Positions 8,039 through 56,059 of a DNA stretch of 64,000 nt are shown here, piece by piece. Numbering within the stretch: the stretch's first letter is position 1; each line of letters begins with the position of its first letter. Under the pieces are notes generated by a model. It saw nothing but the letters and a program-made list of their open reading frames with translations, had not been told where the DNA came from and searched no databases. This DNA comes from Chiloscyllium plagiosum (Eukaryota): the NCBI RefSeq assembly GCF_004010195.1, contig NC_057756.1, forward strand, positions 1,763,703-1,827,702, read 5' to 3'. Made by a program: the position numbers and the translations under genes.

Positions 8039-8062
8039 CTGAATGGTCTTTTCCATCAAGTT
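8039..8062 (-). CDS. Micro-exon 21 (24 nt, type D); KLDGKDHS
   Basis: ctttcttgcag|AACTTGATGGAAAAGACCATTCAG|gtgaat. Confidence 0.85.
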
Positions 8063-9084
8063 CTGCAAGAAAGTTGGACAATGATTTGAATCCTTATTCT
8101 GAAATCAACGTAAGTTTCCTTCTTTAAAAAAATGAACATATTGCGAGAAAGTATCAATAAATTACTTAATACCAGGTTTATCATTGGGGTATTTGTCTTT
8201 GCAATGTGTGAAGGACTTTAATGAAAATAATCATTCGTGCATGTTTATTCGTCTATATACATCACGGGTTATTATTTCATTTTTAAAATGCGGCCTCCGT
8301 GGGATAAACGACTCTTATTTCCACATAACAATATGTAATGTTTTGATGAAATATGAAGATTGTGAGTTGCACTCACTGAGTCCTTTTTCACTAGTATACA
8401 TGCCTGATTTACTTAAAAGCATAATGCATTTCAGAGTGATTGTTGCTGCATCTTTGAACTGAAGTGAAGTTATTAATGTCTCTGCTAGTGTCAGTTTAGA
8501 TTGTCAACAATTGCTCAGTCGAAAACATATTCCCTAGATATGCTACCATGCACAGAGGGACTTCAGACATGTACATCTAATACTCATTCATCCATTCTGT
8601 CCAACCATGTTTTCCATGGGCCTCAGCTATTTCTGAGTCAATTTCATCACGTGAACCTACATAAATCCATATATTTTCCAGCAAACAATACAGTACGACA
8701 TATTCTCTCATTCCAATACATCAGTATATAATAAACGTATGTAATGAGTAAATCATCCTCCTCCCTTTTCACCAATTTCAGCAGGGCAGCGCCACTAAAT
8801 TAAACGACCCCTCTCCTCCACAGTCATTATTGTGCAGCAGTTGTCTCTGTGACGAAATACAGTTTCACTGCATCGTGATTCTAAAAATTTCCTCGTCCAA
8901 GCATCCCTGATGGATTCCAATGCAATTACAGAATGTTGACATTTTAATGTATCTATTCTAACTGTCCAAAATACACAACCACAAGTTTCAGGTGAAGCTG
9001 TGCTTCACTTTTTCTTTCCTTATAGTTCAGCGAATTTTCAGCTAACTATACGATCTGTATTGTAAGATTGAGGTCATATGCAGA

Positions 9085-10220
9085 CTAGGTGATTACCGAT
9101 GATTTTGGGATGGACATAAGAACACCAAGACATCAAGTGAATTGGAAAATTAGATCCAAAATTCCTGGATTGCAGGATGGAATGGGTAAATATGGGAACA
9201 TGCTTGTCAGACTAAAGGCTTCTAATTAGAGGAGTACCTTTGAATTCAGTGCTGGGCCCATTCCTGTTTTTCACCTATATCAATGAGTTGGTTGAGAATA
9301 AACAAAGCATGAATAGAATTGGATGACAGTAAAATAAATGGTAGCGTGAACAGTGAAAACGTTTATCAGAAATTGGAGAAGCACCTTGATCAGCTGCGGA
9401 AATAGACCGAGAAATGGTAAACAGTGTTTAATATAGATTAGTGGGAGGTTTTGCAATTTGCCAAGGGAAAAAATTCATGGTGAATGGTAAAGCCTTAAGA
9501 AGTTTAGTGGAGCAGAAGCAGCTTGGAGTTCAGCTTCACAGTTCTCTGGAATTGGAGTTACAGTTAGACAGGGCATTGGAGAAAGCTTTTGGCACACTGA
9601 CCTTCTTTGGTCATGGCAGAAGTTAGCCAGGATGTTGGTGAAGTCCCAATTGGATTATTGTCTTCAGTTTAGGTCACCATGTTATAATGAAGAATGCTAT
9701 TAAACTAGAAAGAGTGCAGAAGAAATTTTCAAGAATGTTTCCTGGATTCACTGGTCTGAGTGAAATTGAGAGATTGGACAAGCATTTTTTTTTCTTTAGA
9801 GCGCAGGAGAGTGAGGGGGGGTCCTTGGAGAATTGCATAAGATTATGACAGTTTTGAATACAGTGAATGCACGCTATCTTTTCCCCAGGTTTGGAGAGTT
9901 TGCGGTGGGGGGTGGGGGTGGGTGGGGGCCGGGAATCAGAATAATTTAGAGAGAATGAAGAAAAGGGAACCTGTGAGTCAATTTTATTTCAGAGAAGGTA
10001 GAACGCATATAGAATGTACTGCCAGTGGAAGTGGGGTTAGGTACTTTTTGAATACTTAAAATGCATTTGGATAAATGTTTGGATTCCAAAGGATTAGAAG
10101 GATATGGGCCATGTGCATGGAAATGGGGTTAGGATGGACAGATATTTTCCTCTGCAAGACCATGCTGAGCGAAAGGTCCGTTTTTCCGTGCTGTAGGAAA
10201 CTATGACTTCATGACTCTAC
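9085..10220 (+). mobile_element. CR1-type LINE 3' portion, decayed
   Basis: Collinear with 6126-7115; ends ctatgacttcatgactctac. Confidence 0.85.
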
Positions 10221-11455
10221 ATTTGTCGACATTCCAGGAAGCCATCGGCTTCCCATTCAAATATGTCCATTTTGGAGCTGCTACATTATTACAACAAATC
10301 TCATCGCAAGCTGTACTTGTTTACACTAACTTGTTTTTGTTGACACGTTTCAGCTTAGCGAACTCGGTGTTGAAATGAAAACTGTACAACTAGATCTCTA
10401 ACTTGCATCTTGATTGCAACACCCGTTCCCACAATACTTTTTTTTTGTGAACGTTGATCCTAGGTGAGCGGATTTGCTTTGTGCTTTTAATGCTTGTCTT
10501 TTTTTGTAATTTGCATATCTACAACCAATTTACAATGCTTAACATAACGTTTTTATCATTCACTTCAAGCAAAATCATCATTTATTCCACTTTCAATCCT
10601 CTTCCACTCGCGACAGCACAAAATAAAAGAAAGCAAAACTGCTTGTTTTAGAACTGAAAAAGAGTTATATCGTATTCCAAATCTTAGCTGAACTTGTTTG
10701 CACAGTTGCTGTTAAATATGATTATTGACCAGAATTTTGTTGTTTAACTTCAGATCTAATATCCACAGTATTATTGTTTTTATTTCTCACTCATCTTGTG
10801 AGGCAAAGAGTTCACATGAACCCTTCAAATGTTGGGGCATTTCCAGGTGGAATGTTCAGATATGGTGCGTTTCTTGTGCAAGCCATATGGAAGCTATACC
10901 TTTTTGTCGGACAATTGCAAACTTTATCTACTGAGAAGTAAGAACAAGCCTTCTTCTTTTGTTTAGCACCTATCCAAACACGACTGCATTGCACATCTGT
11001 CATTACTATTGCATTGATTTCATTTTTTTTGTGGGGGTGAAGGTTGAAGTCTAACTGATGCAGACCATGGTAAATACCAGCACGATCACCTATTTCACCA
11101 GATGACAGATATCTCTTGTGATTCTATTTGTTATACATTAATCAACGTGAGATAGAGCTACCTTGCTTATTCCCTTTCAGATAATTGTGTTTTCTCTGCA
11201 ATAACAGCAGCAATCCAAAATCTTAACGAACGATAACATCTGGAACTCTTGTGGTGAAACTTGCTTTCAGAAACATGGCTTCACGTTTGTAATAGCATAT
11301 AGAGGACGTAAACCGAGATTTTTTTAAAAAATCACATTCACATATACTGAAATTATTGATATAATTGAAGACAGAAAATTATGAACAAAGTGTTCATTCA
11401 TCCTTCTAGGCAGAAGCAAAAAATGATCACGATGTGAATATGCTTTTTTACTCAC

Positions 11456-11482
11456 TGCACTTCAGCTTAAGATCCTCAAGTT
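11456..11482 (-). CDS. Micro-exon 20 (27 nt, type C); ELEDLKLKC
   Basis: ttgttttccag|AACTTGAGGATCTTAAGCTGAAGTGCA|gtgagt. Confidence 0.92.
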
Positions 11483-14569: not shown

Positions 14570-14982
14570 TTTCAAAGTTTGTGAGATGATTTGTAACTCA
14601 GGTGCTCGTTGTTATGGTTCTGTTTGCCGAGCTGGGAATTTGTGTTGCAGACGTTTCGTTCCCTGTGTAGGTGGCATCCTCAGTGCTTGGGAGCCTCCTG
14701 TTGAAGCGCTTCTTTTCTGTTTCCTCCGGCATTTATAGTGGTTTTTCTCTGCCACTTCTGGTTGTCAGTTCCAGCTGTCCGCTGCAGTGGCCGGTATATT
14801 GGGTCCAGGTCGATGTGTTTGTTGATAGAATCTGTGGATGAGTGCCATGCCACTAGGAATTCCCAGGCTGTTCTCTGTTTGGCTTGTCCTATAATAGTAG
14901 TGTTGTCTCAGTCGAACTCATGTTGCTTGTCATCCGCGTGCGTGGCGACTAATGATAGCTGGTTGTGTCGTTTCGTGGCTGG
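14570..14982 (-). mobile_element. Penelope-like element 3' end (GIY-YIG C-terminus and pLTR)
   Basis: Near-identical to the reverse complement of 52770-53177. Confidence 0.9.
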
Positions 14983-16150: not shown

Positions 16151-16177
16151 CTTTTTCCCTGTTACTCAGTCTTTGTT
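16151..16177 (-). CDS. Micro-exon 19 (27 nt, type B); EQRLSNREK
   Basis: tattactacag|AACAAAGACTGAGTAACAGGGAAAAAG|gtacaa. Confidence 0.9.
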
Positions 16178-16487: not shown

Positions 16488-16523
16488 CTGACCGGTCTAG
16501 AGCGCCAATCGCATTTTCCAGTT
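16488..16523 (-). CDS. Micro-exon 18 (36 nt, type A); ELENAIGALDRS
   Basis: ttttgtttag|AACTGGAAAATGCGATTGGCGCTCTAGACCGGTCAG|gtgagt. Confidence 0.93.
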
Positions 16524-17411
16524 CTAAACAAAACGTAGAAAATCAAAACACAAATGTAGCGGGCCATTGTACCTCCTAGTTTATAAGTAAAATACTAACA
16601 TAATGTCACTTGCGTGATCTCAGAAAACATAAGACCACTTGAAAATGAATCATCACATCCGGAAGTGTAGTGATCATGCGGTAATCGAAGGAACTTTCCG
16701 ATTGTGTATACAAATCAATTTACAAAAAAAAAAACAACAAAGAAATGTGCCATGCCAGAACTAGGAATTAAAGTGAGGTGCTTTGTGGATTCGTTTTGAG
16801 ATACTGCAATATGTTGCCTCGTTTTGTTTTCATAATATCGCTGTTTTCAATCCGCTGAGTACGTCGAGCTGAACATAAAGTGAAACAGTTCCAATAGCAA
16901 AAATCGGCCTTCAAATTGCATCGCCGTGTGAGATTTTATTCTTGTACTGCAATGTTTTGCGCATTCTTTCACAAGAACAATAGTCATACAGTATTGAAGC
17001 AGACCCTTGAGCCCATACAGTCTATGCTAAGCATAATCACAATGTAAACTAGTTCCACGTGCCTGTGTTGACCCATATACTTTTAAATATTGCTTTCTGA
17101 ATTCTTGGATCATTAGTAAGAAAGCTGCTTGTTGTTCGATGAGGTGTGACTTTCTGCAGATTGCCTATGTATTGATGATACGCTCATTATTTTTCCAGAC
17201 AAAAATCATTGATCTGGCACCTATCTCTCTTTCACATTATTTAATATTTTTTCGTTCCTGTATTATGACTGATGTTTCTGCCCCGCCTTGCTTGATTGAT
17301 GATTTAAAAACGATATGCTTCAAGCACAATTCCTGCTGGTATACTGTGAGGGGACATTATGTTGACAGAGGTGATGTCTTTCCTATCAAAGCGTTTATTT
17401 CATCTACATAC

Positions 17412-17438
17412 CTTTCTCCTTCCTGATCAGCTTCTGAT
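17412..17438 (-). CDS. Micro-exon 17 (27 nt, type B'); DQKLIRKEK
   Basis: gttatctcaatag|ATCAGAAGCTGATCAGGAAGGAGAAAG|gtatgt. Confidence 0.9.
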
Positions 17439-18466
17439 CTATTGAGATAACAGATGAAAACGTTGGGCTAAAAATAAAGCTGCAATAACGCACATGCACA
17501 AAAAAAAATCCATTGACACAGAGCCATGCTTTGATATGAACATCGTTTCTCTGATGGTATTGATGGTCAATGTAATCTTGACAAACTAAACTTAAAAATT
17601 AATGGAAAACACAAAAAATGCCATTAACTTAAATAATAGTGTGATATGTAATTAACTTCATTTATGCAAATTTGCTGACAACGTGATGCATTTAAGACAA
17701 TATTGAAGTTCTCTCAGAGAACCACGATTATGTGAACGTTTTAAATCATTTTTTGCGAGAACCGTTGGGACAAATTACAAAGAAAAAAGGCAAATCTATT
17801 CTCTAAGTGTTAGAAAGGCATAATAACGTTGCCTAGAATTTATAAAGATAGAATGTTATATACAGGTAGCTGAGTATTATTCCCTTGAAAGTCCAATTAG
17901 ATTAAGTTTAATGATAAATGATTCACAATTAATCCCACAATCGTACCCTTTTGGCTGGCTAAATTAACGGCATGCACAAAGAGACACAAAAATCGTGACC
18001 TGTCAAATGATATAGAGAGAGTAAGAGAAAGATAGATTTTAACAAATACTACATGCAAATGCAGATCAGAATCTGCTGTACTTCTGCCTTGAGTTAATGA
18101 TTTATGAAACATACAACTGGAATTCTCAGAGACACATTTCGTCTAAGTTTGTTTGACTAATTGAATCCTTTTATCCATATTGCTTGCTTGGTAAAAGTAG
18201 CAGCCGTGACTATTTAACATTAAATTACTTTGTCAAATATCGATGGGAGTTTCTTCAGAACCTATTTCCATTTTCGAGGTATCAAGATCATGAACTCTAT
18301 CCCACAAGTTAGAAATGATTGAACCCTTGACCAGCAACGCCGGAGACAACTAACTTGCATGAGTTGCATTTTGCTTTAAAAGCTCATTCATATATTAAGA
18401 CGTATATAAGCCATCAAGGCAGAGAACAGTTTCAGTCCTGCGATATCAGAAGGCAACCATTCTCAC

Positions 18467-18502
18467 CTGCACGCTTGAGTGCTTCTTTTAAGTACTCCAA
18501 TT
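18467..18502 (-). CDS. Micro-exon 16 (36 nt, type A'); ELEYLKEALKRA
   Basis: gtattttgcag|AATTGGAGTACTTAAAAGAAGCACTCAAGCGTGCAG|gtgaga. Confidence 0.92.
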
Positions 18503-19849
18503 CTGCAAAATACGTGTATAAGTGAATATGTAAATATTTTGCAAACGAATTAATGCACATGCATAAATGAGGAATTAACCAAACGAAAGAATCGCAGAAG
18601 TGACATGATATATAAATGAGATAGAGAGAGTAATATAATATAGACCGAAAAGAGTTTTTGTAGTCGGGTTAATACTTCTGTGAGAGTTTCCGCCTTCTGG
18701 TATTTTGCTTGCTGTGACTGGAAACAAAAAGCTACTTTCCCTGGCATCTGCTGCAGCATTACTTTTTCGAATAAGACCCCCTCTTGCTGTAATCAGGTGT
18801 AATCACACGTTGGATGCAGAATACCTAAATATTGATATTTCTTTTTCTTTCCAAGCACAACTCACATTGAATTTTTTTTCTCATATATTCATTCGATAGG
18901 TAACAGCATTGATTAATTCATTCATGTCGATTCGTATAAAAGATGGACAATTGTAAACCATGGGATCAAGATTTGCCCATTCAAACTGTTCAGTCTGCAA
19001 ATCGTTCAGCACAGTCATCGACAATGGACCACTTCAATGCCTTCTACCCAAATCAATGCCATGACGTTGTTACAGCATTAGTGATCAGAAAGTTACCAAT
19101 TTTAGCATTAGACTGCTCAATGACTAAATGATGAATCACACCTTAATAGCCGCCTCCTAAATCTATATTGTGTCACTGATTTCGAGATTTCCCATGAATA
19201 GAGATTTGTTACAAATAGAGATCTAGGCAGTGTATTCCTTTAAGTATTTTGCAGATATATAGAGATTTCTCTGTCTTCATTTGAAGCAATTATTTATTCT
19301 TCTTGAAATCAGTGTTCAAATCCTCTTGAAATAACATATATTGTGAAATTGACAGTGTGCTATCTTCCAGTGATTAATGACATGTACGACTCTATCTTTC
19401 CCTCCGCAGTTATGATTTCAAAAGTCTTAAAACATAGTAAGAACTGTGGAAGCGGAAATCGAATGCAAAAAGTAGAAAATGCTGTAAAATAAACTCAGAA
19501 GACTTCAATGTTTCCATCTCAATGATCTTTTTTTTTCAGAACAGTTATTCAGAGGTGAAAAGAAAAGTTCAATGGACCCGAATTGTTAACTCTGATTCTC
19601 TCCAAAGGTTATACCAGTCTATTTTTCCAGCAATTTCTGTTTTTACTTTAAAAATGTTATGAGAAATGACGTGCTACACATGTCAAAGTGGAAATCTTCA
19701 GACGTTTCCAAACAACATGTTATCTGCTTATTTACTTAACAACTCAATTTCCTCGTGTGTATGCTTTACGTCTTCATTACAATGCATCTTCCAATTAGAT
19801 TTATATTATTATTAATATTTTGGAAACGTTCCATTTGGTATCAACTTCC

Positions 19850-20020
19850 ATCTCAGTGGCTCCATTGTTGGCGCTGCTGCTTCATAGCGCCAGCGTCTCA
19901 GATTCGATTCCAGTCTCGCTTGACTGTCTGTGTGGAGTTTATACATCCTCCCCGTGTCTGCGTGGGGTTCCTAACACAATCGAAAGATGTGCAGGTCACG
20001 TGCATGGACCATGCTATCTA
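19850..20020 (+). mobile_element. HE1-like V-SINE, partial
   Basis: gactgtctgtgtggagttt..ccccgtgtctgcgtggg V-domain. Confidence 0.75.
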
Positions 20021-21640
20021 ATGTGTTTTCGTTCATTTTGTTAGGCCTTCAGTACAGGTCATAATTAAAAGACTTCTGGAAGTCTGAGTTTCTAGACATT
20101 TTGGCACTTATTTATCAATTATATTGACAACAAGTCCATGAAAACTAAAAATCTGCCAAAGTGTGCAAAAAAAAATCGCTTATAGAAGTTCGTTCTTCTT
20201 TTTCTTTTGTCCAATAGACTGCATTCCCACTTTTAAAGTGTTTCCTTTTTGTTCTTGTTCTTGTACAAATTATTTAAAAGAAGACTGCTAGCTGCTTTCC
20301 GGGATGAAAAACAGAGAAAAACTTGTCTGTGCTTGCATGAGGTCTACGTTTAATGCATGATCTAAACTAATACCTAATATTTCTGCATTCTGTGCCAAAC
20401 AATGGTATGCATCATCAGATTCAAAATAGTTCTGTTCATGAGGGTGTGCAAAGTGATCGTCTTGGGATGTAATGGGGACTAATAGGATATACAGTAAAAT
20501 CAAACTTTTGTTGCAGATGTTTTGTTTTGGTCTGTGAACAAAGCATGTTGAATATTTCATGTTATTCATAATGCAAGTTTAATGTTCAACATGGCTTTTG
20601 TCATCATATGGGTGATCCATCTCAAAGGGGAATCAATTATCATCCATTTTCAGAGTGAGTTCATAAGTGGCTGTCCAGAGTGCTACTGCGAGAGTACACT
20701 CTGTGAAACTTGGGACTGATGCCGGTTATGGGAAGCAATTGTTGGGGCACTGGTGTGGCATAATGTTCTTTTTTTTTCCACCTAGCTTTTTTTTTTCCCA
20801 ATGCTAATTCTGCAAATCCTCAATGCCTTCCTGGTTGCTCCTCGTCCACTTTGGGCTGCATTGGTCTGGTGATTCGCAGGTGTCTGTGGGAATGCAATAA
20901 TTCACTAGCAAGGCCTTCACTGATGCAAATCGTCTGTCCACAATTTGATGCTCTTTCTTTAACGAATAACAGGACAATAAGTGTTGATGCTTTGTTCCTA
21001 AATAGAAACATTGGCATAACTAACACCATGCTGAACAGAAATTATAGCCATATTTCTAGGATCTGTTAAGTACCATCATTTGTATGGTTTAAAAAAACTG
21101 GAAGGGACAGAACATATTCAACTTTAACAAGTTTATAATGACTAAAAAGAAGACGGAGGTGAACTCAGAAAGCATCAGACAAATTGTTCTCGTTATTATT
21201 CGGACATTGTTCCATACCATTATAAGTGAGCGCCAAATACATTAACAAATTCAAATGAAACAGATATTTCTATTCATAGATATCTTGTACTGCTTTCCAT
21301 TCTGTTTGTTCTTATTAATTTGAAGACAGAAGGGAGATTTGTGCTATTGAGAGGCTTTTCGGCCAGGGTTATTCCAGAAATATAGTGCCTATTTCAATCC
21401 TTACCGCTCATTTGCAGTCCAAATCAAATGCAGTAAATGAATCTGTAGTCACGTTTTCACAAGTGTATAAAGTGTGCACAACTATTCCAATCAAAATCTG
21501 CAACTGAAATTAAATATTAGGGTACCTGGTAGAACAGATAATAATGTGCCAATAAATTAACAGTGCAGCAAACTAAAAATAATTGCAAAAGTTTTGCTCT
21601 ACGTCGAGTGGGAAAGTACGTATTCTTCCTTACTTTGGAT

Positions 21641-22302
21641 TGTTGTGACTGCTTTCGCTTTAAGAGGTTATTTTGTTGTGTTTTGAACATATTTGAAGAG
21701 CAGTTCTAAGGCAGAGATTCGGAGATGTTTCGGAGAAGGTAACATATTGTGAGGCTTTGCTTTTTTCAAAAGTTGGAACAAGGGAAACAGTCTGGGTGTG
21801 ACCAGCTCTCATTGACTTGGTATTCTAGTTTTTTTTTGTTTAGTTATAGGTTTAGTTTTAAACGGGAGCATTTGGGTTCTCAATTCAGTTGTAACTTCAG
21901 TGAATGTCTCATTGTGACTATTCTATCTGAGTATTCACTTGATGTTTTCTTTTCCTCCGGAATAGGAGAACTGCCAGTGAGTCTGTACCTGAATTTGCTT
22001 TTTTTGCTAAGGGATGTATTTATTGGAACTTACTGCACTTGGACAGTTAATTGGTAACAGTTACTATTAAAATAATAATACATATTATTTGGTTAAGTTT
22101 TCCAATAGTTAAGGTATTCTAAAATCATTTATCTTTTGTTTGTATTTTAACTGTAGCTTTTAAATAAATTGTGTTTTGCCTAGCATCGTGTAGGTTGGCC
22201 AATCACACCGCATCAGTTCCAACACTTTACATCTATCTTCAAAATAAGAATCAATTAGGGTATAAGTTACTTTCTTGAGGGGCTCTGGCCTGCTTCATAA
22301 TA
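21641..22302 (+). mobile_element. Solo LTR (Gypsy-like)
   Basis: TGTTGTGA...TCATAATA termini, internal AATAAA, flanks GGAT/GTAT. Confidence 0.5.
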
Positions 22303-22385
22303 GTATTCAATTTTGATAACGAACAGCGTCTTGCTACACTTTTGTATAATATTTGTAAATATTTTGAACGATTAGTAGGTAATAC

Positions 22386-22415
22386 CGTTCGAGTGACTGT
22401 CTTTTTCGTCGAGTT
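22386..22415 (-). CDS. Micro-exon 15 (30 nt, type D); KLDEKDSHSN
   Basis: gcttttgcag|AACTCGACGAAAAAGACAGTCACTCGAACG|gtatta. Confidence 0.82.
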
Positions 22416-23181
22416 CTGCAAAAGCACAACAGAATAATCAGACATGTCATAAAAAAATGAATGATAGTGAAGGCAATAATAGAAACGATTGCATGTACCT
22501 AACAATGAGATACTTGCAATGGACCTTCGCCATCGGAGTAATTGTTTATTAATAATTTTAAGGATCATCGATTTTTTTTCATTCGACTCAGAAGATGAAA
22601 CAATTCATGTACTGTCAAATCAGTTCATAATTGCAGCTTTTAAAGCCAATACGTAGCATGTTAGAGGGATATCGGAGCAGAACTATGAGCCCAATATACA
22701 CCAGTATGATTCAGTTTGTTTATATCATCTTTCTTTTTTATACTGCAAAGTTAAAATCTCATTACGACTAAAGTATTGATTTCTAGATGAACGTGTGCGA
22801 TAGTGTTAAATTATCAATATTGATAAACTCTCATAAGTGACTCATTTACTGATTAAAACACGCAGGGGAATAAACTCATCAGAAGGTTTTCAGCACAGCA
22901 TTGTATCAGCATTAGGGCAAAGTTTAGATGAATTCTACTTTCCAAATATCGGAATACTTCTTATGTACTTGTTGATGAAAACGAAAACAATGCATTAATG
23001 TTACATGGCATAAAATGCCTATACGAAAGCATGTTATTAGGAAAAACACTGTATAATAGCGATGCAATATGAGAGAGGCACACGGACTGGAATTGGTAGA
23101 AATCGGCCTTGCAGAGATGAACGGTGATTGAATCGTAAATGGCGCAATTGTCAGAGGTGCATGACGAGAATTTCAACTTAC

Positions 23182-23208
23182 TGCACTTCTGCTGAAGGTC
23201 TTCCAGTT
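23182..23208 (-). CDS. Micro-exon 14 (27 nt, type C); ELEDLQQKC
   Basis: gttattctatag|AACTGGAAGACCTTCAGCAGAAGTGCA|gtaagt. Confidence 0.92.
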
Positions 23209-23289
23209 CTATAGAATAACAGTGAAATGGTAGCAGGTTAGGGATGCAAATGTGGCACCATATCGAAGGAACAGGGAACATTCTGAACT

Positions 23290-26703: not shown

Positions 26704-26730
26704 CTTTCTCCCTATTACTCAGTCGTTGTT
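26704..26730 (-). CDS. Micro-exon 13 (27 nt, type B); EQRLSNREK
   Basis: ttttttatcaaag|AACAACGACTGAGTAATAGGGAGAAAG|gtagga. Confidence 0.9.
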
Positions 26731-27400: not shown

Positions 27401-27419
27401 GGAGAAAATAAAAACATAA

Positions 27420-32022: not shown

Positions 32023-32058
32023 CTGAACGTTCCAGTGCTCCTTTCACATTTTCCAGTT
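32023..32058 (-). CDS. Micro-exon 12 (36 nt, type A); ELENVKGALERS
   Basis: tttttttcag|AACTGGAAAATGTGAAAGGAGCACTGGAACGTTCAG|gtaaga. Confidence 0.93.
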
Positions 32059-33543: not shown

Positions 33544-33570
33544 CTCTTTCCTTGCTACTGAGTCTTTTTT
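33544..33570 (-). CDS. Micro-exon 11 (27 nt, type B'); EKRLSSKER
   Basis: tttaattgcag|AAAAAAGACTCAGTAGCAAGGAAAGAG|gtgggg. Confidence 0.9.
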
Positions 33571-34707: not shown

Positions 34708-34743
34708 CTGATCGATCCAAAGCACCCCTTAAAAACTCCACTT
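34708..34743 (-). CDS. Micro-exon 10 (36 nt, type A'); EVEFLRGALDRS
   Basis: tttttttcatag|AAGTGGAGTTTTTAAGGGGTGCTTTGGATCGATCAG|gtgagc. Confidence 0.92.
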
Positions 34744-37264: not shown

Positions 37265-37291
37265 CTTTATCAAGTTTACTGTGGTCTTTGT
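37265..37291 (-). CDS. Micro-exon 9 (27 nt); DKDHSKLDK
   Basis: catccttgcag|ACAAAGACCACAGTAAACTTGATAAAG|gtaagc. Confidence 0.8.
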
Positions 37292-43662: not shown

Positions 43663-43689
43663 CTGATTCATTTTCACTTGAATCGAGCT
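43663..43689 (-). CDS. Micro-exon 8 (27 nt, type D); KLDSSENES
   Basis: atttccaccaacag|AGCTCGATTCAAGTGAAAATGAATCAG|gtaaaa; KLD start shared with 22386 and 8039 exons. Confidence 0.8.
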
Positions 43690-46270: not shown

Positions 46271-46339
46271 ATGATAGCAGATCAGGCATCCATAATCAGT
46301 GGAGAAGTTAATCTTTGGTGAAACCCATACTGAAGAGCT

Positions 46340-48300
46340 ACGTCCCATTTGGATAATACTCGCAGCTCCTGTTTGTAGTCAATGTAGCGTGATTGGAGAC
46401 AAAGGTAGCAATGTTAAATGAATGGATCAGATGCAGATTCACAACACTGTGATGGAGAAATTCCTCTCGAAAAATCTAATAAGGTTACTGAAACTTACGG
46501 AATGGAAATCACTCAGATGAAATGCTGAAACTACATCAGGACGTGACTTTGCAAATTAATCACTTGGTGAATGAGGACTTGTTAAAAGAAAACGAACTGG
46601 ATTACTGCACAGAACATAGCCGTAGTTAAGATAACTAGTCACCCTTGAGACACAGAAGAAGGCAGAGGTGTTGTTGAAACCCACTCGGAAACTCTAGTGA
46701 TGTGTTTTCCCTTTAAGGCTGAAGGCACTTTGGTTCGATTGCTCATTTACATTGGCGAATGGGTACGCTTTATTGACCAACTGTATTGGCAATTATACAT
46801 TACAATGGACGGTCTAACTCACCTGAATGGTACTACAAAGGTTAGGGCCTAAAGATTTTGGAACGAACAGAATGCAGAAAATTCTCCCAGATTGACAGCA
46901 AATCTTTAAAATCGTTACTGACAGTTTACATGACCTCATTGGCGAGGACACAAAACATTTCTAACAGGGTCTCGGGAGAACACGTGGCTCTAGCATTTAT
47001 GCAGTCCGAGAAGACCGACCCAAATGTATCATGCATTGGCGTACCTTTAAGCCCTACGTAAGAAAGAATAAACCAAATGGGAACTGACTGTAATTTAAGG
47101 GATCGTATGGTTGCGCCTGGAATGTTGAGCCAGCCTACATATTCTAACACGAACCAGTCTACATCGGATGAACTAATGCCAACCAACCAAGATGATGTTA
47201 AACTTCATGGGGACGCCTCTGACACTGATAATCTGTTACGTCGGAATTTGGTTTTCTGTATGACGTGGACTCTCAACTCTGGTCTAATTCTGCAGTTCAA
47301 AATTGTTTGTCTGATGATCTTTGCGCAATTCATTATGGTGCCTGAACTGTTACTGACTTACCTCTGAACACCTGGTGGCACCCCCACCTGCGGTTTATTG
47401 GTTCAAAAGGATAGTGACCATTTATTGATCTGTCAGGAGCATAATCCCAGCAACGACGTTGCCTGTGATCAGACGAAAAATACCTTGCGCCTGACTGCTC
47501 TTCTGAGATACTCCAAATGTACTACATTGGGTTGAGTAAGTGCTAATACTATAAATATGCTTTAGTTATTGTTGACGTTTTTTCGAAGTGAATTGAAACC
47601 GACCTGACTGTTCACACTACTGCTGAGACTTCGATGAAGATCTTGCTTAGGGAAATTAATCCCCGCTTCAGTTTACCTGCGTGCATTAGCCGGACAGTGA
47701 AATGTACTTTGTGGGTTATTTTAATAAATAACTTTGTTCCCAGCTTTCTATTCATCGGCAACTGCATTTTGCTTACCGTCGTCAGGCTGCCAGCCTTGTT
47801 GAACGCTTTAACCAGACTCTGAAGACCTAATTTGCCAATTTAATGGCTTAGACTGGCCTTTCCTGGGTGAAGTCACTCCCTGTGTCCTTATTCCAGATAC
47901 GATCTATGCCTGCGGGCCTGACACAACTCTCTCCAGCTGCGATTATCCACTATCGCCCGCTCTGTACTCCTTGGAATAATTCAAAACCCTCCTCGGTCCG
48001 CTTCCACCACATGACAGAAGAAATGATTGGTTATGTTCTTTCTCTAACTAACGTGATGTGTGCCTTTCACTCCCAGGTGTGCATGGCCTTAGACGGTGTC
48101 CCCTTCTATCAGCCTCGTCACGGGTAGAGCCTGGTTCGTTTGTGCCCTTCAAGAACTGGATTCACAAGGGTCTCCAATCTCGTTTGGATGGCCCCTTTCA
48201 GTTTTTACTTACCATCCCTACGGCGGTCAAAATCGCTGGTCGCTCAGCTTGGGTCCACCTGCACCATTGCAAATTGATTGGCCACGTAAAACATAAAGGG
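46340..48300 (+). pseudogene. pol: Epsilon-like ERV pol remnant: protease, 2H-like segment, integrase; RT/RNase H not seen
   Basis: NEDLLK (GRDLL-like); WWHPHL in the zinc-binding region; LQMYYIGLSKC*YYKYALVIVDVFSK; GPY/F motif DGPFQFLLTIPTAVKIAGRSAWVHLHHCK. Confidence 0.85.
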
Positions 48301-48389
48301 GGAGAGGAGGAGAGAATAATGGAATCCTGGGAAACAGAGATCGTGTCCATTTAGAATTTTGTATTTTGTAGTTGTCAGTTAAACTAAGA

Positions 48390-50616
48390 GGAAAAACATG
48401 TGAGGGATCGCTTACTTACTGTCCTGCTTGACCACATGCAACATCCTGATGGGGAAAGCCACCAAGCATTGAAAAGATCCAGAATAAGTGGAGATTATCA
48501 AATATATATGCCAAAAAGATGTCATCCAGTGCACCGGACAGAGGATTTTGAAGTGTAGAGTGTGACCAAGATTGATTATTGCATGGACTCTTACATCAAG
48601 CAGACCGCATGGCCCATCTGGATAGTAGAAATCAGTGGAAATTACCAGGTCGGTACCAAACCTGTCTTTTTGATTTTACTTGCAGATGTAAGCCTCGAGA
48701 GGATGAAAGTTAACAACCCCATTACTATGGTAAACGTGTTAAGGAGGCCCGGAACACCATCCCTTTTTGCAGGATGGATCTACTCGAAAAAAGAGAAGCC
48801 TAATAGGGTAAACTCCTCAATCCACAAACGACTTATTTATACAGTCTAACAGAACACTCTTCACTCAGAGTCAGTATAGTGTTACTCCTCCCTGTTGATA
48901 GATGACTTGCCTTCCCCGTCCCCAGTCCCTGATCCCATTCTATTTGTTAGACTTCCTTCTTCCGACCCTCCAAAGAGAGATATTTCTTTCCAGTGGTGTA
49001 TATCTCTCCTGCCACCTCTTTTCTGGCGCATTTTAACTCTTCTGTAAGGTCGTATGAGAATTGCTGTAATGGAACTGGCTATGGGTGTGCAATTGTTCAT
49101 ATTCCACATAACATCTCCTGCTTATCAGAGACTTGTCTTGTCCACTCCTGTAAGACAAAGTGGCATTAAATCTCCTGCCAGTGTAACCAAATAGCTGGCA
49201 TTCCTTCGGCTGGGGGACAACAGACCTTATGCAGCACTAGTAATTATACCCATCTCTCTGTAGGACCTGAAAGGAACTCTTCGCTTGCGCATTTATAAGT
49301 CTTTTCTCTTTCCAGAATCTGATACTGTCGCCAAGACCATGTACGATAGGGAGCCTAATGGGAACAGAATTTCGGGCTGTCTACCATACATTTCAAACGC
49401 TCAACAGTCACTTTGCCCATTTCTTATGGCGCTCAAACAACACTGCTTGTAAAATGTCGGCTATGTACTCCTGTAGACCTGGCCAGAACCCCTGCTGAAA
49501 CATTTTAATAAGCTATTTTAACAAACTTTCCCTCATATACACCAAATCTGGCTCTTATTTATTCATGGAAATGTGTTGATGGAAAAGCGCAGCAGGTCAG
49601 GCAGCATCTAGGGAACAGGAGAATCGACGTTTCGGGCATTAGCCCTTCTTCAGGGCTAATGCCCGAAACGTCGATTCTCCTGTTCCCTAGATGCTGCCTG
49701 ACCTGCTGCGCTTTTCCAGCAACACATTTCCATCTCTGATCTCCAGCATCTGCAGACCTCACTTTCTCCTCTTATTTATTCAGCCAAGGTAAAGCTACCA
49801 TTTTCTTTGTTCTTGATGGCAAAGATGTTCCCCATAAGGTCGCTTATAAGAGCCCTTGTTCCAACGACAGTACCTTTTCCTGGTCAGTGGACAAGTTTAT
49901 GTAACCTTCATCTGAAGAGAATGCAATAGTCGGTCTCAGTTGACTTTTGCTCTAAGGATCTGAAGGGACTGCGTGACAATGGAGGGCACTCGATAGGCTG
50001 GCGAATCCTGAGTACCATGAGTTTGGGAGAATTGGCAGGGGTAATAAGTCAAAAGTACCTCAATACCCTCATCTGAGGCCTGACCATTCGAATCAATAAG
50101 ACCAAAGAGGCTCGGAAACAGATTACACTGGGGTTATCAGATCTGTGTCTTTACTCGATGAAGAATCAGTATGTCTTAGACTATGTACTAACCTGGGAAG
50201 ACGGTATCTGTACAACTGTCCAAGTCAAATGCATTATGAGCATTTCTGATCGCACTGGCAATATAACTAAGATGGAATACAAGATCCAGGTGTACCATGA
50301 TGGAATGACTGAAGGGATCAGTTGGGGAGACTGGGGATCGGGTTCTTGGTACAATTAGCTTATCTATTCAGATATGTATATCGGAATAATTCTCCTCTGT
50401 CTGCTTGTTGTTATTGCTATTGTTAAGTGTTTAATTGTTAGACTTATGAGCTCCCTTAGTGATTCGTCCCAAAAGATATTCCTTTTGCAATCTATTGGCT
50501 CTCCCGCATGTGTTGATTGCAATAATCAATATGACCAGGTGAGCTGCGAATATGGTTTTGCTTCTCTAGACGATATTGACGGCTGGCATGCTTTGAAGGG
50601 CATACATTTGGAATAG
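48390..50616 (+). pseudogene. env: ERV env remnant (gamma/epsilon-type TM)
   Basis: ISD-like KNQYVLDYVLTWEDGIC-X6-C..GNIT and TM helix YIGIILLCLLVVIAIVKCLI. Confidence 0.85.
49566..49768. mobile_element. Near-perfect fold-back PLE-derived element inserted in env, 14-bp TSD, hammerhead core
   Basis: About 80-bp inverted arms; CTCTTATTTATTCA on both flanks. Confidence 0.9.
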
Positions 50617-51169: not shown

Positions 51170-51418
51170 CAGGTTGACAGCGGGAAGATTTAAGTGAGAC
51201 CTAGATGCAACGTTTTCACGCAGTTTGTCGTGAATTAATGGAATGAGCTGCTAGATTAAGTGTGGAAGGATGGTATTACTACAACTTTTTTAATGGCATC
51301 TTTAATGGTCAGCAAATAGGATAGTTTTAGACAGATCATGACCAAGTGCTGGCTAATTCAACTAGGTTAATTCAGGATATCTGGTACGCATGTATGATTT
51401 GGTCTGAAGGGTCTGTTG
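51170..51418 (+). mobile_element. CR1 3' tail, continuing at 53178-53215, split by a Penelope insertion
   Basis: ...ctgaagggtctgtt | ggggtctgtttctgtgctgtaactctctatgattctat. Confidence 0.75.
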
Positions 51419-52030
51419 TTATGGTTCTGTTCGCCGAGCTGGGAATTTGTGTTGAGACGTTTCGTCCCCTGTCTAGATGACATCCTCAGTGCTTGGGAGC
51501 CTCCTTTGAAGCCTTCTGTGATCTTTCCTCCGGCATTTGTAGTGGTTTGAATCTGCCGCTTCCATTTGTCAGTTCCAGCTGTCCGTTGCAGTGGTCGGTA
51601 TATTGTTTGTCTTATGTAGTGTTTTGTGCAGTCCTTGCATGGGATTTTGTACACTACATTGGTTTTACTCATGCTGGGTATTGGGTCCTTCGTTTTGGTG
51701 AGTTGTTGTCTGAGATGGTTGCTGGTTTGTGTACTGTTATAAGTCCTAGTGGTCGCAGTAGTTTGGCTCAGTTCGGAAATACTCTTAATGTATGGTAGTG
51801 TGGCTAGTCTTTTGGGTTGCGGCATGTCCTCGTTCCGTTGTCTTTCCCTTAGGCATCTGTTGATGAAATTGTGTGGGTATCCATTTTTGGCGAATACATT
51901 GTTCTTCTTCCTCTTTTTGCAATTCTGGTGTACTGCCGTTTGTTGAGGCCTTTTTGAATAGTGCCGTTGGTTTGTTCAAATATTTGGTTGTTGAATGTGA
52001 AGTGTGTTGTGAGGCACAAGTCCAGTAGCT
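51419..52030 (-). mobile_element. Penelope-like element, inverted and internally deleted arm
   Basis: ATLPYIKSISE..NVVYKIPCKDCTKHYIRQT (ORF 51367-51825). Confidence 0.9.
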
Positions 52031-53177
52031 TGAGTGCAACACACTTCACTTTCAACAACCAAATATATCAACAAATCAACGGCACACTCATGGGCTCACC
52101 CATTTCTGGACTCATAGCAGAAGCGGTTACACGAAGATTAGAACAAACAGTCTCACCACAAATTCAACCCAAACTCTGGGTCAGATATGGGGATGACACC
52201 TTTGTAATCGTTTAAAAAAAAAACAGAAGTAGAGAACACACACCGGATCATTAACGCCACACTCACAGGAATCCGATTCACTAGAGAGGAAGAACAGGAC
52301 AACCAACTCCCATTCCTAGACGTGATGGTACAGAGAACACCTAACGGAGAATTCACCACAAAGGTATACAGGAAAGCCACACACACAGACCAAGTCCTAA
52401 ACTACGAAAGCAACCACCAGAAAACACACACAAAAGAAGTTGCATCAAGACACTACTGAAAAGGACCACAACACCAGAACCTGAAAAAGAGGAAGAACAC
52501 GTATACAATGTATTCACCAAAAACGGATACCCGCGCAATTTCATCAACAGATGCCTAAGGGAAAGACAACGGAACNNNNNNNNNNNNNNNNNNNNNNNNN
52601 NNNNNNNNNNNNCAGCCACTCTCAGACAACAACTCACCAGAACGAAGGACCCAATACCCAGCATGAGCAAAAGCAGTGTAGTGTACGAAATCTCATGCAA
52701 GGACTGCACAAAACTCTGCATAGGACAAACAGGAAGACAGCTAACGATCCGCATCCATGAACACCAAGTAGCCACGAAACGACACGACCAGCTATCCTTA
52801 GTAGCCACACACGCAGATGACAAGCAACATGAATTCGACTGGGACAACACTATTATTATACGACAAGCCAAGCAGAGAACAGCCTGGGAATTCCTAGAGG
52901 CATGACACTCATCCACACATTCAATCAATAAGCACATCGACCTGGACCCAATATACCGACCATTGCAACGGACAGCTGGAACTGACAACTGGAAGCGGCA
53001 GATTCAAACCACTACAAATGCCGGAGGAAAGATCACAGAAGCGCTTCACAGGAGGCTACCAAGCACTGAGGTTGTCACCGACACAGTGGACGAAACGTCT
53101 ACAACACAAATTCCCAGCTCGGCGAACAGAACCAGAACAATGAGCACTCGAGCTACAAATCTTCTCCCAAACTTTGA
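52031..53177 (+). mobile_element. Penelope-like element RT C-terminal half, GIY-YIG and pLTR (N gap 52576-52612)
   Basis: GTLMGSPISGLIAE..WVRYGDDTFV; VVYEISCKDCTKLCIGQTGRQL..HEHQ..EFLEA. Confidence 0.92.
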
Positions 53178-53274: not shown

Positions 53275-53301
53275 CTTTTTCCTTGTTGCTTAGCCGCTGT
53301 T
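53275..53301 (-). CDS. Micro-exon 6 (27 nt, type B); EQRLSNKEK
   Basis: ggcttgcacag|AACAGCGGCTAAGCAACAAGGAAAAAG|gtatgt; paralogous to 26704 and 16151 exons. Confidence 0.92.
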
Positions 53302-53333: not shown

Positions 53334-55224
53334 GTTACGAATATTAATTTCGACATTGTATTGGACCTGGACGGACCCATGAAAAAATTTGAAAAAAGGC
53401 AACCCACACCTTAATTTTTATATTTGTTTTTAGCAGATGAATAATAGCTGGGAACCGGGCGATGTTGTTGGGGACCCAAACGAAAAGCAGTTCCATGCTG
53501 ATACTCTCTCTCTGGCATCTATCCTGTCAGAAACTATACTTGACTTCTTTTCGTATTTGCCAAGGGGGTGTCAATGAAGATCTTGCAGTTATTTGTAACA
53601 GCCTAATTACGTTACGAGAGTATCGATTTAACATGAATAATTTTATTTTATATTCTGCTGTCTTTAATTCTTCCGTTAAGAAATTCTGTTTTCCTGTATA
53701 CCAACATGGTCATTGGTAACTGCATTTGTTTAGCCAACTTTTCAACTGCGGTTGAAAAGGCTTCCATATCCTTCTCATAAAATTTAGGCAATGCTGGAGT
53801 ATAGTTAAACAGATTCTCACCTGGCCTACGGCTACGATGAGATTGCTCATCATCATTCTCTTCCTGAATGAGCTTACGTTCAGCCTTCATGCCCATCCTT
53901 TAAAGCTTACTTTTCTGTCTAAGTGTCAATTTCTGGAAATCAAACGCCCTCTCTTTCGTCCTTTCCCTATCTTCTTTTCTCTCTTTTCTCTCTCTTTTTC
54001 TTTTTCATTCTGAAAAAACGATCTGTTGTTTTTTCTGTCTAAGTGTCAATTTCTGGAAATCAAACGCCCTCTCTTTCATCCTTTCCCTATCTACTTTTCT
54101 CTCTCTTCTCTCTCTTTTTCTTTTTCATTCTGAAAAAAACGATCTGTTGTTTTTCTTCCTCGGTTTTTAATCGAATATCAAACTGTTTCATTTCTTTGGC
54201 CTTTTTCTTTGTCTTTTGCCTCTACCTCAAACTGCTTCGATTTAAATTTTATGTTACCCATCTCTCAAAATTCTGATGACATTTCCAGAAAATTCAAATG
54301 CTGGGTTTGTGCTGTAATTCTCTCTCAGTTGCTTATGAAAGGAGGCAGCTCCAACCCCAGCTTGTCTGCTAATTTCACCACTTGGCCTTAAAACAATCGA
54401 AGTCACTTCTTCCCCACCCTCCCACAGAAAACTCTTACTTACTCAAAGAGCCATTGATCTCCCAAGTACTGTTTACTCCAACCGAACTCAACATGCAGAA
54501 AAAACAGACACCGGCACTTGCTACTTGTATCCTTTTATTCCAACGACCTTAATTTCAATTTGGAACCACTGAACAAATACCATAAATAGTCTTCAATGCA
54601 TTATTGATCAAGGCAGACCCCCTCAACCCATTTCAAGAAAGTAATCGGTACCCAACCTTTCCTCGTTATTTTAAACAAGTGCACAGTAGATATTCTGGGA
54701 GTGATGCAGCTGACAAACTTAGGTTTAACTAAAACAATTTATTTTCAGGATAAGCAAATGAAATACAATCAAAAGAGAACTGAATTTAAATGAACTTTAC
54801 CGGTAAAAAAAATACAACAGATTACTTCAATTTATCGATGCTTATTCAAATCCTTGCAGCAATCCCAATAAACGTTGGACAAAAATTGAAACATTCAACT
54901 CATTTTCTTACAGAAGAGATGTCAGATTCAGCAAGGAGTACATTCTTCCATGTAGCTGTTTATTTGACTAGATATGACAAAACTGATTGTTTGCCAAAAC
55001 CAAATCAAAGCTTGTGTCGAGCCGAACTATTTGATTAGGCTATTCCCATTCCATTGTACAGATATTATTTAACGTCAACCTTTTTGACTGAGGTGACATC
55101 TGTTAGCTCTACTCAAAGGCCCTCAAAACATTCAAATCTCGACTTCCGGGAGCGTCAGTGTTTACCAACCTCTAAATACAAAATCAAAGACAACTCAACC
55201 TTGTTCAAGAGACGGCATCATCAC
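53334..55224 (-). mobile_element. Truncated Gypsy element: LTR about 54600-55224 plus gag 5' part
   Basis: LPKFYEKDMEAFSTAVEKLAKQMQLP (ORF 53648-53896), a typical vertebrate Gypsy gag motif. Confidence 0.7.
53911..54153 (+). repeat. 120-bp tandem duplication within Gypsy gag
   Basis: ttttctgtctaagtgtcaatttctggaaatcaaacgccc at 53911 and 54031. Confidence 0.95.
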
Positions 55225-55389
55225 AATATGATATTAATAACATCTTAGGTGAAGGGTAAGGCATGAAATTAAGTTAATTGCTTGCAATTCCTGCCAAAGT
55301 AAAGCAATATCCCCATGATCCAACAATAATCTTCCTGCAATTACACACAAACAGAGCACATATTCAATGCAATGGCCATTTCAGCTATC

Positions 55390-55638
55390 TGTTGTGGTTC
55401 TGTTGGCCGAGCTGGGAATTTGTGTTGCAGACGTTTCATCCCCTGTCAACCAGAAGCAGCAGATTCAAACCACTTCAAATGCCGGAGGAAAGATCACAGA
55501 AGCACTTCACAGGAGGCTCCCAAGCACTGAGGATGTCACCTAGACAGGGGACGAAACGTCTGTAACACAAATTCCCAGCTCGGCCAACAGAACCACAACA
55601 ACGAGCACCCGAGCTACAAATCTTCTCACAAACTTTGA
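55390..55638 (+). mobile_element. Short Penelope pLTR element with 5' inverted piece and 12-bp TSD
   Basis: ATTTCAGCTATC at 55378-55389 and 55639-55650. Confidence 0.9.
55524..55563 (+). ncRNA. Minimal hammerhead ribozyme motif in Penelope pLTR
   Basis: GCA-CUGAGGA-UGUC..GAC-GAAAC-GUC-UGU. Confidence 0.7.
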
Positions 55639-56023
55639 ATTTCAGCTATCATTTAATTGAAATGTGTTAACAACCGTTGATATGACATTCCAGTACATTC
55701 GTGTCTAAACCACCCGGAATCATTTTCAATATCGCCTTACTGACAAGTGATATTGAAAAAAAAACACATCCTTCTATATCGATTTCACTGAAGAAAAGTT
55801 CTAAGTTAGAGCAACATGTGGATACACCTCAAGGGTGAGCAAACTCGTCTGACAGAATTTGAATCATTTACCAAATATTCTTAAGTAAAATGAAGTAGAA
55901 CAGTGTTAGACTACGAAAATGGCAGATCAGAATGAACAACTTACAAGGGTCTTAAAAGAAGATTCGAAATAATTAATACATGAACATCCAGAGATTATGA
56001 AATAGCAGAACTTTTATACTCAC

Positions 56024-56059
56024 CACAACGCTCCAGAGCACCTTTGACATTTTCCAGTT
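56024..56059 (-). CDS. Micro-exon 5 (36 nt, type A); ELENVKGALERC
   Basis: gtattgtag|AACTGGAAAATGTCAAAGGTGCTCTGGAGCGTTGTG|gtgagt; paralogous to 32023 and 16488 exons. Confidence 0.92.

Follow-up and report, generated by a model that had tools for sequence, protein, structure and literature searches.

Paired micro-exons that very probably encode a segmented coiled-coil rod in the shark Chiloscyllium plagiosum

Tiny exons of 27 and 36 bases line up on the minus strand of the Chiloscyllium plagiosum genome and very probably specify a coiled-coil rod, with each 36+27 pair contributing exactly three heptads. The window, meaning the whole stretch of 64,000 nucleotides analyzed here, would be the middle of a very large gene from a chondrichthyan family in which long coiled-coil rods are combined with a terminal divergent B30.2 (PRY-SPRY) domain. 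We give this reading a probability of roughly 0.6.

Exon calls and coding character

The minus strand carries, between 56059 and 8039, all 16 exons implied by an earlier note on this DNA. They are bounded by AG and GT and have phase 1-1, with A exons of 36 nt, B and C exons of 27 nt and D exons of 27, 30 or 24 nt. The list itself was incomplete (Table 1): exon E between D1 and A'2 had been overlooked, and three further exons lie ahead of A1, the second and third of which make up a divergent 36+27 pair that fills the A'B' slot. Past D3, beyond the edge of the window, lies a second extra polar exon of 27 nt (window coordinate -2702).

Table 1. Exons called in the window, in 5' to 3' order on the minus strand
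Exon	Position	Strand	Description	Score or rank
X1	62785..62820	-	36 nt, A class, outside the coordinates of the earlier note	18.7
X2	59066..59101	-	36 nt, divergent, Pro at stripe position, A' slot before module 1	20.9
X3	56570..56596	-	27 nt, B class, B' slot	19.6
A1	56024..56059	-	36 nt, 83% identical to A2	19.1
B1	53275..53301	-	27 nt	24.0
C1	44353..44379	-	27 nt, final Cys on leucine stripe	19.1
D1	43663..43689	-	27 nt, polar	18.8
E	37265..37291	-	27 nt, polar, second hinge exon after D1	rank 6/266; untrained score 23.1
A'2	34708..34743	-	36 nt	17.9
B'2	33544..33570	-	27 nt	20.9
A2	32023..32058	-	36 nt	27.7
B2	26704..26730	-	27 nt	25.4
C2	23182..23208	-	27 nt, final residue Cys51	23.0
D2	22386..22415	-	30 nt, polar, weak donor, weakest call	16.4
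A'3	18467..18502	-	36 nt	27.9
B'3	17412..17438	-	27 nt	21.5
A3	16488..16523	-	36 nt	22.0
B3	16151..16177	-	27 nt	26.9
C3	11456..11482	-	27 nt, final Cys	20.9
D3	8039..8062	-	24 nt, polar	20.7

A model of splice signals and composition, trained on 35 exons outside the window, placed 20/20 window exons within the top 21 of 266 minus-strand candidates, a ranking that is not fully independent because the training exons were originally found with window seeds. Among 313 plus-strand decoys the best scored 18.7, and four outscored D2. With splice signals only, matches on the minus strand peaked at lengths of 27 nt (11) and 36 nt (8), compared with at most two matches at any length on the plus strand. 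A plus-strand reading of the exons was rejected, a coherent set being absent.

The array extends past both 8039 and 56059 and comprises 55 candidate exons (18 of 36 nt, 35 of 27 nt and one each of 30 and 24 nt), that is 1,647 nt over 242 kb; several calls above window coordinate 100,000 are uncertain, and alternative shorter forms of called exons were left out of the count. At least 19 exons lie below the window, beyond D3, the last at window coordinate -85810, and the longest intron inside the array measures 15 kb. Candidate 154812-154786 was dropped as part of a LINE reading frame, and 162559-162524, 98840-98820, 24369-24352, -10472, -39374, -106172 and -115580 were dropped for low scores or repeat context.

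Joined together, the exons give 549 codons with no stop and three prolines. Differences between exons of the same type fall at codon position 3 in 122 of 237 cases, versus 47 and 49 at positions 1 and 2, and 77 of 157 differing codons are synonymous in the predicted frame, versus 7-10% in four other frames and 42% in the antisense shadow frame; these counts come from 23 mutually non-independent exon pairs. B2 and B3 differ by three synonymous codons and no replacement. The predicted frame is under coding selection. The open frame with its scarce prolines, the third-position excess, the confinement of the length peaks to one strand and the intact AG and GT in 20/20 window exons speak against remnants of a defunct gene or splice-like strings arising by chance, an explanation that is highly improbable even though no transcript evidence was seen and a few decoys match the weakest exon scores.

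An Rfam search of the window returned no matches. Over 17400-37350, sequence set X19 gave no match, X18 and X20 matched essentially on repeats, and none of the 15 joints listed, out of a larger number, connects exons, matches of 27-36 nt being possibly too short to register. DNA contigs of a second organism span much of the same interval at roughly 90-95% identity; they conserve the introns too, so the exons are not singled out by conservation.

Heptad register and the history of the exons

Every exon is symmetric (phase 1-1), so adding, losing or skipping any of them leaves the frame intact. The heptad register is kept only by the pair of 12 and 9 residues (36+27 nt), which bears out the earlier proposal that A+B, with its 63 nt and three heptads, is the register-keeping unit. 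Exon A carries Leu at positions 2 and 9, with position 5 also hydrophobic, exon B carries Leu at 4, and exon C prolongs the stripe and closes it with Cys. The predicted stripe V2, L9, L16, L23, L30, L37, L44 and C51 is exact in module 2, where none of 100,000 residue shuffles was as good, and module 3 repeats it at 8/8 positions (P 1e-5).

The order of exons along the array is far from random. A B-type exon follows 15 of the 18 36-nt exons (shuffle mean 7.2), and an in-register A or C follows 19 of the 21 B-type exons (shuffle mean 10.0), neither count being reached in 50,000 shuffles; this test is partly circular, as the classes are defined by the same hydrophobic positions. By length only, adjacent 36-36 pairs occur once versus 5.6 expected (P 0.004). 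Exon order keeps 66 hydrophobic pairs at i,i+7 versus 50.4 +/- 3.5, a value not attained in 20,000 order shuffles; for the window exons only, the figures are 24 versus 20.2 (P 0.045).

Polar D exons of 27, 30 and 24 nt had been likened to hinges, and the shift of register at each C/D boundary fits this description: after C, one or two polar D-type exons set a new register. Segments of 30, 51, 51 and about 100 residues, each in register, are thus strung together by polar links of 10-18 residues to make the rod, and because the register breaks, 3.5-residue periodicity over the whole chain is weak (0.87). Heptad position a is Leu or Cys in 8/8 heptads and position d is mixed, the second core stripe being hydrophobic in only about one heptad of three. 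The chain would dimerize through Leu/Cys at a and L/V-S/A-K/R at d, and with the established coiled-coil rise of 0.148 nm per residue its 549 residues would measure about 80 nm in length. In two relatives, the RefSeq isoforms are told apart by exact 9-residue blocks; such losses of single blocks imply that 36+27 pairing is not obligatory everywhere.

The earlier note had further seen three higher-order modules, produced by duplication of an exon pair and then of a module. A triplication of the four-exon ABCD unit is retained from this scheme. The A-B-C blocks in the window are 72-82% identical in nucleotides to each other and 47-66% identical to three blocks downstream, which supports an old local triplication of A-B-C(-D), as judged from sequence comparison; D exons are mutually only about 50% alike. 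The six-exon A'B'ABCD module fares worse as a duplicated unit. A'2B'2 and A'3B'3 are 60% identical, the second lowest of 10 comparisons among five window pairs, and with 33% at third positions and 74% at positions 1+2 they are no closer to one another than to ordinary AB pairs. B'2 is nearest to B3 (81%) and A'3 to A2 (69%). In the exon tree, a check suggested at the outset, the A'B' pairs are not sisters in the best topology, but a sister relation is not rejected (p-AU 0.46; 0.12 with X2X3 included).

A single duplication of the A-B pair followed by duplication of the six-exon module, with fast A'B' divergence hiding the sisterhood, is therefore doubtful in the light of these identities, despite the tree tests. 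It would agree with the order of classes, which, once X2-X3 and the additional polar exons are included, becomes A B A B C D D / A B A B C D / A B A B C D D, and with the aromatic residue at position 4 and Leu at 5 common to A'2 and A'3; it concerns history only and is compatible with the reading of the gene given above. Flanking introns retain no similarity, flanks of same-type exons being no more alike than those of different types, and third-position identity among copies (29-62%) is near saturation, so the order of events is unrecoverable from one genome and the proposed succession of pair and module duplication is unsupported. Extra A-B pairs would have been added to the triplicated blocks in some sequence, and the three-module story adds little beyond the register constraint.

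A family with a terminal B30.2 domain

Most likely the array encodes a member of a chondrichthyan family of proteins with a coiled coil and B30.2. Genome-wide, the C-type pattern has 14 matches versus one in the reversed control, 11 of them on the 10.7-Mb contig of the array and six of those outside the array. For the B-type pattern, which is not enriched genome-wide (39 versus 35 in the control), 18 of the 39 matches lie on this contig, 11 outside the array. Off-array matches mostly precede B30.2 exons of a single group and share their strand, and A/B/C exon types are common to three other arrays on the contig and to an A-B-C block in a skate gene model.

Three different queries retrieved the same five members of the B30.2 group (109-150 of 258-274 candidates scored), one on the minus strand of the contig. 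Together with seven relatives from skate, ray, catshark, chimaera and basking-shark models, three B30.2 exons of the contig form a branch separate from sampled TRIM/BTN domains (SH-aLRT 100, 10 vs 30 rows) in a quick, unrooted tree of 40 rows that applies to the array only if the B30.2 linkage holds. In databases the relatives are labeled 'TRIM69-like', 'TRIM39-like', 'TRIM58' or 'zinc-binding protein A33-like', and Pfam finds SPRY/PRY only in six of them, whose models are probably 5'-truncated. In the skate protein XP_055510696, residues 76-105 form a 12+9+9 A-B-C block immediately ahead of the B30.2 domain. Ungapped scoring ranks this match first among 168 proteins (46.8; next 38.8); by HMM it is weak (E 0.08). 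A structure model shows one helix (67-106) that ends just after the Cys of the block; a dimer prediction was uninterpretable (score 0.04) and is not taken as evidence.

Word-index searches against longer proteins gave no hit at E 1e-20 for the B30.2 exon (255 candidates), ten ordinary TRIM/BTN-type proteins for the catshark B30.2 domain and, for exon A2 with its flanking open frame, none among four candidates; no full-length orthologue was found in these searches. Nor did we find a paper describing the shark family in the literature searched, which omits most subscription journals.

How the array reaches a B30.2 exon is a further question. The sole same-strand exon of the group lies at C47:1,296,623-1,297,146, 381 kb below the last array exon, and joining of heptad exons to B30.2 is present in one relative's gene model, that of the skate. 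The transcript would pass a GC-rich, gappy zinc-finger block, then the next same-strand array and finally the B30.2 exon, in a gene of about 620 kb. The 36/27 alternation does resume on this strand at C47:1,583,493-1,565,566, including one exon 81% identical to B2, after a step of 94 kb, compared with 15 kb for the longest intron of the array, that contains C2H2 zinc-finger coding sequence (GC 0.43-0.51) and seven gaps, with 29 kb of it unseen.

This break, with its zinc-finger genes and different base composition, could instead mark the end of a separate gene with the same exons and rod, whose 3' B30.2 exon was lost in an assembly gap or which is B30.2-free like chicken BG genes. The seven gaps could conceal an exon, and where two paralogues have a C-type exon 20-27 kb before their B30.2 exon, this locus has the gappy block. 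Still, we regard a separate gene as less likely: the array resumes in the same style, no convincing terminal exon was found between -85,800 and -123,000, and no spare B30.2 of the group turned up on small contigs among the candidates scored. What counts against the reading with a linked B30.2 exon is that, in the 354 kb examined, 168 queries, all of which matched a control locus, detected no B30.2, RING, B-box or Ig exon, only repeat-derived matches.

At the upstream side, searching for a first or a transmembrane exon produced no signal above control, and the 5' end of the array was not found. The array might encode the cytoplasmic tail or the extracellular stalk (butyrophilin/BG-like, or in the manner of a lectin-type neck) of a membrane protein with Ig and transmembrane exons further upstream, in which case the segment-ending Cys could be acylated or disulfide-linked. 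Heptad exons of BG and butyrophilin genes sit after a transmembrane exon (PMC4046983, PMC5938342), and the skate model starts with a hydrophobic stretch. Neither the 28 kb ahead of the first exon nor the rest of the 334 kb scanned yielded an Ig or transmembrane exon, and the Pfam content of the six relatives, truncated as they probably are, also tells against a membrane protein, which we consider unlikely.

If the rod is joined to B30.2, the protein would most likely be an intracellular spacer or scaffold that holds B30.2 binding domains in pairs, in the manner of TRIM and butyrophilin coiled coils; alternatively it may bind along the cytoskeleton, like a BG-derived zipper protein. Only tentatively do we extend this to chondrichthyan-only, membrane-free giant rods (>100 micro-exons, >1,000 residues, at least half a megabase per gene) with a divergent B30.2 tip, where the coiled-coil unit is written across two exons, frame is free and register is not, and coupled micro-exon splicing would tune length and flexibility. 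In gene evolution and alternative splicing alike, the 36- and 27-nt exons would then be gained or lost together inside zipper segments and singly only at polar links.

Comparison with known systems and implications

The array is a variation on the tiny-exon heptad tails of chicken BG and butyrophilin genes. Chicken BG has a long coiled-coil tail from dozens (27-37, variable) of tiny split-codon exons, with a hydrophobic stripe running across exon borders and one conserved Cys; the exons measure 21 nt and hold a single heptad apiece, with a few of 18 or 24 nt, and follow Ig-V and transmembrane exons, with B30.2 absent (PMC5938342, PMC4046983). The shark array likewise very probably encodes a long coiled coil in many tiny split-codon exons. 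Unlike in BG, no shark exon equals whole heptads, and the array is longer, segmented by polar exons and without an Ig or transmembrane exon in the sequence scanned. The butyrophilins BTN1A1, BTN2A and BTN3A have very short heptad exons, sometimes skipped singly, and then a terminal B30.2 exon (PMC6790196, PMC4046983). Their heptad exons are few and preceded by IgV, IgC and a transmembrane helix, compared with 55 candidates here, and the shark B30.2 group sits on a long branch apart from sampled BTN and TRIM domains.

TRIM and TRIM-like proteins share the succession of coiled coil and B30.2 with the shark family; RING and B-box are missing from both the relatives' models and the locus sequence examined. 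To our knowledge, the TRIM coiled coil is short and not made of dozens of micro-exons. Guinea pig enterophilins, with a very long leucine zipper and a C-terminal B30.2 domain, resemble the proposed shark product. The CD23/FCER2 stalk, in a type II lectin, has 21-residue three-heptad repeats, each on one 63-nt exon, where the shark array splits the 21 residues 12+9 and a lectin domain was not found. Micro-exon genes of the triadin, elastin and casein type were also compared and set aside on composition or phase.

The shark locus separates reading frame, which every exon keeps, from heptad register, which only the pair keeps; in the 21-nt BG exons both coincide. The strongly non-random exon order is thus a clean sign that exon duplication has been under selection for protein register, and it predicts paired skipping inside segments and single skipping at links. 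The locus also points to very large shark genes that annotation shrinks to short 'TRIM-like' 3' fragments (175-378 aa), a gene family that bears on how the butyrophilin, BG and TRIM architectures arose.

Symmetric micro-exons on the minus strand

The exon array is a real feature, and what the earlier note had observed is confirmed in part. Independent scans recovered, at matching coordinates and all on the minus strand, the 16 exons it had ordered into three modules of A and A' (36 nt), B, B' and C (27 nt) and D (polar, 24/27/30 nt). Four further window exons join them: three before A1, here X1 to X3, and E. Each of the 20 has AG..GT borders, a length that is a multiple of three and phase 1-1. 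A model whose training set was 35 exons from beyond the window places all 20 among its 21 best of 266 minus-strand candidates; this control is only partly independent because the training exons were first located via window seeds. Plus-strand decoys reach a top score of 18.7, and four exceed D2, the weakest exon. Length peaks of splice-signal hits, which owe nothing to the trained score, occur at 27 nt (11 hits) and 36 nt (8) and are confined to the minus strand. Across 23 non-independent pairs of same-type exons, differences amount to 122/237 at codon position 3 vs 47 and 49 at the first two positions; in the same non-independent pairs, the predicted frame makes 77/157 differing codons synonymous, the antisense shadow frame 66/159.

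The window occupies C47:1,763,703-1,827,702 of a 3.56-Gb assembly. Within the 334 kb scanned around it, between C47:1,613,702 and 1,947,702, the array comprises 55 candidate exons (1,647 nt) over 242 kb, from window coordinate 156,175 to -85,810, those beyond about 100,000 being less certain members of the count. Joined, they read as 549 codons with zero stops and three prolines.

Features in and around the array (window coordinates, extended beyond its ends, unless C47, the window's contig, or another piece is named)
Feature	Position	Strand	Remark
X1, X3	62785-62820; 56570-56596	minus	before A1
X2, A'2, further exon	59066-59101; 34708-34743; -2702	minus	in-frame tandem acceptors three bases apart (33/36-nt, 24/27-nt alternatives); alternative use would move the heptad register by one residue
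E	37265-37291	minus	polar; between D1 and A'2
Link after module 2	22386-22415	minus	10 residues
Link after module 3	8039-8062 and -2702	minus	17 residues
Degraded retrovirus-like or LTR-element remnant	46300-50600	plus	in B1-C1 intron; many stops
Open frame in remnant	48052-48354	plus	matches MLV integrase C-terminal domain (Pfam PF18697, E 1.4e-9)
Hydrophobic, envelope-anchor-like stretch in remnant	near 50372-50538
One repeat family	51416-53177; 14571-14980; 55390-55638	both	88-94% identity; look like non-LTR retroelement pieces; surround the window's only assembly gap (52576-52612)
Palindromic elements	49565-49733; 34959-35117; 34161-34237		about 160-170 nt; self-complementarity 96% and 84%; highly abundant among DNA and RNA runs
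Old LINE fragments	6123-7095; 9243-9888; 61688-62552		67-69% alike
Tandem duplication	53911-54154		120 nt; 96% identical; pyrimidine-rich
GC-rich block	C47 about 1,613,700-1,668,000		pieces L024, L025, L029-L031; separates two same-strand micro-exon arrays
C2H2 zinc-finger coding sequence	L029:6174-6905	minus	inside GC-rich block; Pfam E 4.6e-32
Restarted 36/27 alternation	C47:1,583,493-1,565,566	minus	AT-rich DNA
Divergent-group B30.2 exons	C47:994,524; 1,296,638; 4,577,501	plus; minus; plus	two more on contig C37

Heptad register and duplication history

The stripe V2, L9, L16, L23, L30, L37, L44 and C51 described for module 2 is exact, none of 100,000 shuffles being as good; its equivalent in module 3 is also complete (1/100,000). 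Three residues after the main stripe runs a partner stripe with L/V, S/A and K/R in rotation, and the residue four after is charged. By standard heptad rules, Leu/Cys would occupy position a and the mixed residues position d. The proposal that the 36+27 pair keeps the register holds along the whole array: a B-type exon comes next after 15/18 of the 36-nt exons and an in-register A or C after 19/21 of the B-type exons, a partly circular test. Side by side, 36-nt exons occur once vs 5.6 expected, and i,i+7 hydrophobic pairs number 66 in the true exon order vs 50.4 +/- 3.5. The register holds longest, for about 100 residues, between -21,991 and -51,397, beyond the window. Every C exon closes a segment, after which the register moves, so that whole-chain 3.5-residue periodicity is weak. 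Counting E and the exon at -2702, the polar link after module 1 has 18 residues; those after modules 2 and 3 differ by exactly one heptad and therefore shift the register equally.

Local triplication of A-B-C(-D) is supported by block identities, 72-82% among the three window A-B-C blocks vs 47-66% to three downstream blocks, and by a tree of 17 A-B pairs in which a branch sets the five window pairs apart (72/96, not starred). The proposed six-exon module is not supported: A'2B'2 and A'3B'3 share 60% identity and 33% at third positions. At positions 1+2 they agree at 74%, vs 71-74% with ordinary pairs and 88-95% among AB1-3 themselves; their sisterhood is not rejected (p-AU 0.46). Introns of same-type exons retain no similarity and third codon positions are near saturation, which makes the duplications old and means that the likeness of AB1-3 may owe as much to selection as to recency. 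For the same reasons, the suggested order of pair first and module second cannot be established. The earlier interpretation is thus supported in part, for the register unit and the local triplication but not for the six-exon module or the order of events.

The end of the array and its probable B30.2 relatives

Below -85,810 the array gives way to a higher-GC block (0.43-0.51) with seven gaps and zinc-finger coding sequence, possibly mis-scaffolded or holding nested genes. Beyond it the 36/27 alternation restarts on the same strand with eight candidate exons, all but one of them strong; one of the eight shares 81% identity with B2. Three queries (109-150 of 258-274 candidates scored) each picked out the same five B30.2 exons, all from a single divergent group, two of them confirmed as SPRY by Pfam. 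Matches to the array's B- and C-type patterns lie mainly upstream of these exons and share their strand: 14 vs 1 control for the C-type (11 on C47, 5 of these inside the array) and 39 vs 35 for the B-type (18 on C47, 7 inside the array). C37, a very large B30.2 cluster with the majority of 150 scored SPRY matches, also carries four B-type matches beside its two divergent-group exons.

We found the nearest single-domain relatives, by HMMER full-library search and cluster look-up, in skate, electric ray, catshark, chimaera and basking-shark models that carry TRIM-like or A33-like labels; six have SPRY/PRY as sole Pfam domains. A quick, unrooted tree of 40 hand-picked rows, the short P0014 excluded, unites these relatives with the three C47 B30.2 domains on a single branch (SH-aLRT 100, 10 vs 30 rows). 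Directly ahead of its B30.2, skate XP_055510696 has 12+9+9 residues that follow the A-B-C pattern and close with Cys. Of 168 proteins it has the highest ungapped score, but its HMM match is weak (E 0.08). AlphaFold2 models this stretch as a single helix, 67-106 (pLDDT 73-80 in the helix, 68.4 overall). Annotated RefSeq isoforms of the chimaera and ray models differ by exact 9-residue blocks (one of 6) within polar stretches. Residues 1-118 of the catshark model P0021 match LINE-derived intron sequence of the array locus, so its 5' end appears mis-annotated.

For the array itself, 354 kb of sequence yielded no exon of B30.2, RING, B-box or Ig type, and the sole same-strand B30.2 exon lies 381 kb past the last array exon. 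A separate gene, its end lost or different, is the main rival reading; more likely, there is a single gene spanning about 620 kb, within which a block has been inserted or mis-scaffolded.

Known systems and proposed role

Chicken BG tails build their heptad repeats from many exons of 21 nt, which follow Ig-V and transmembrane exons, and lack B30.2 (PMC5938342, PMC4046983); butyrophilins have a few heptad exons, then B30.2 (PMC6790196). Like both, the shark array makes a coiled coil out of split-codon micro-exons; unlike chicken BG, it departs from the 21-nt exon length. Because of this departure, and since the array sequence scanned revealed neither Ig or transmembrane nor RING or B-box parts, we do not class it as BG, BTN or TRIM. 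Full-text literature searches listed no account of a shark micro-exon coiled-coil B30.2 family. Enterophilins and the CD23 stalk are parallels to its design.

Symmetric exons, pair-wise register, a segment-and-link layout and an old local triplication are the established properties of the array. The chain would dimerise as a coiled coil, its visible part forming a rod of about 80 nm that may end in a B30.2 domain, and Cys, at position a where each segment ends, could serve as a cap or cross-link of the putative dimer. Such a protein would probably serve as an intracellular spacer or scaffold.
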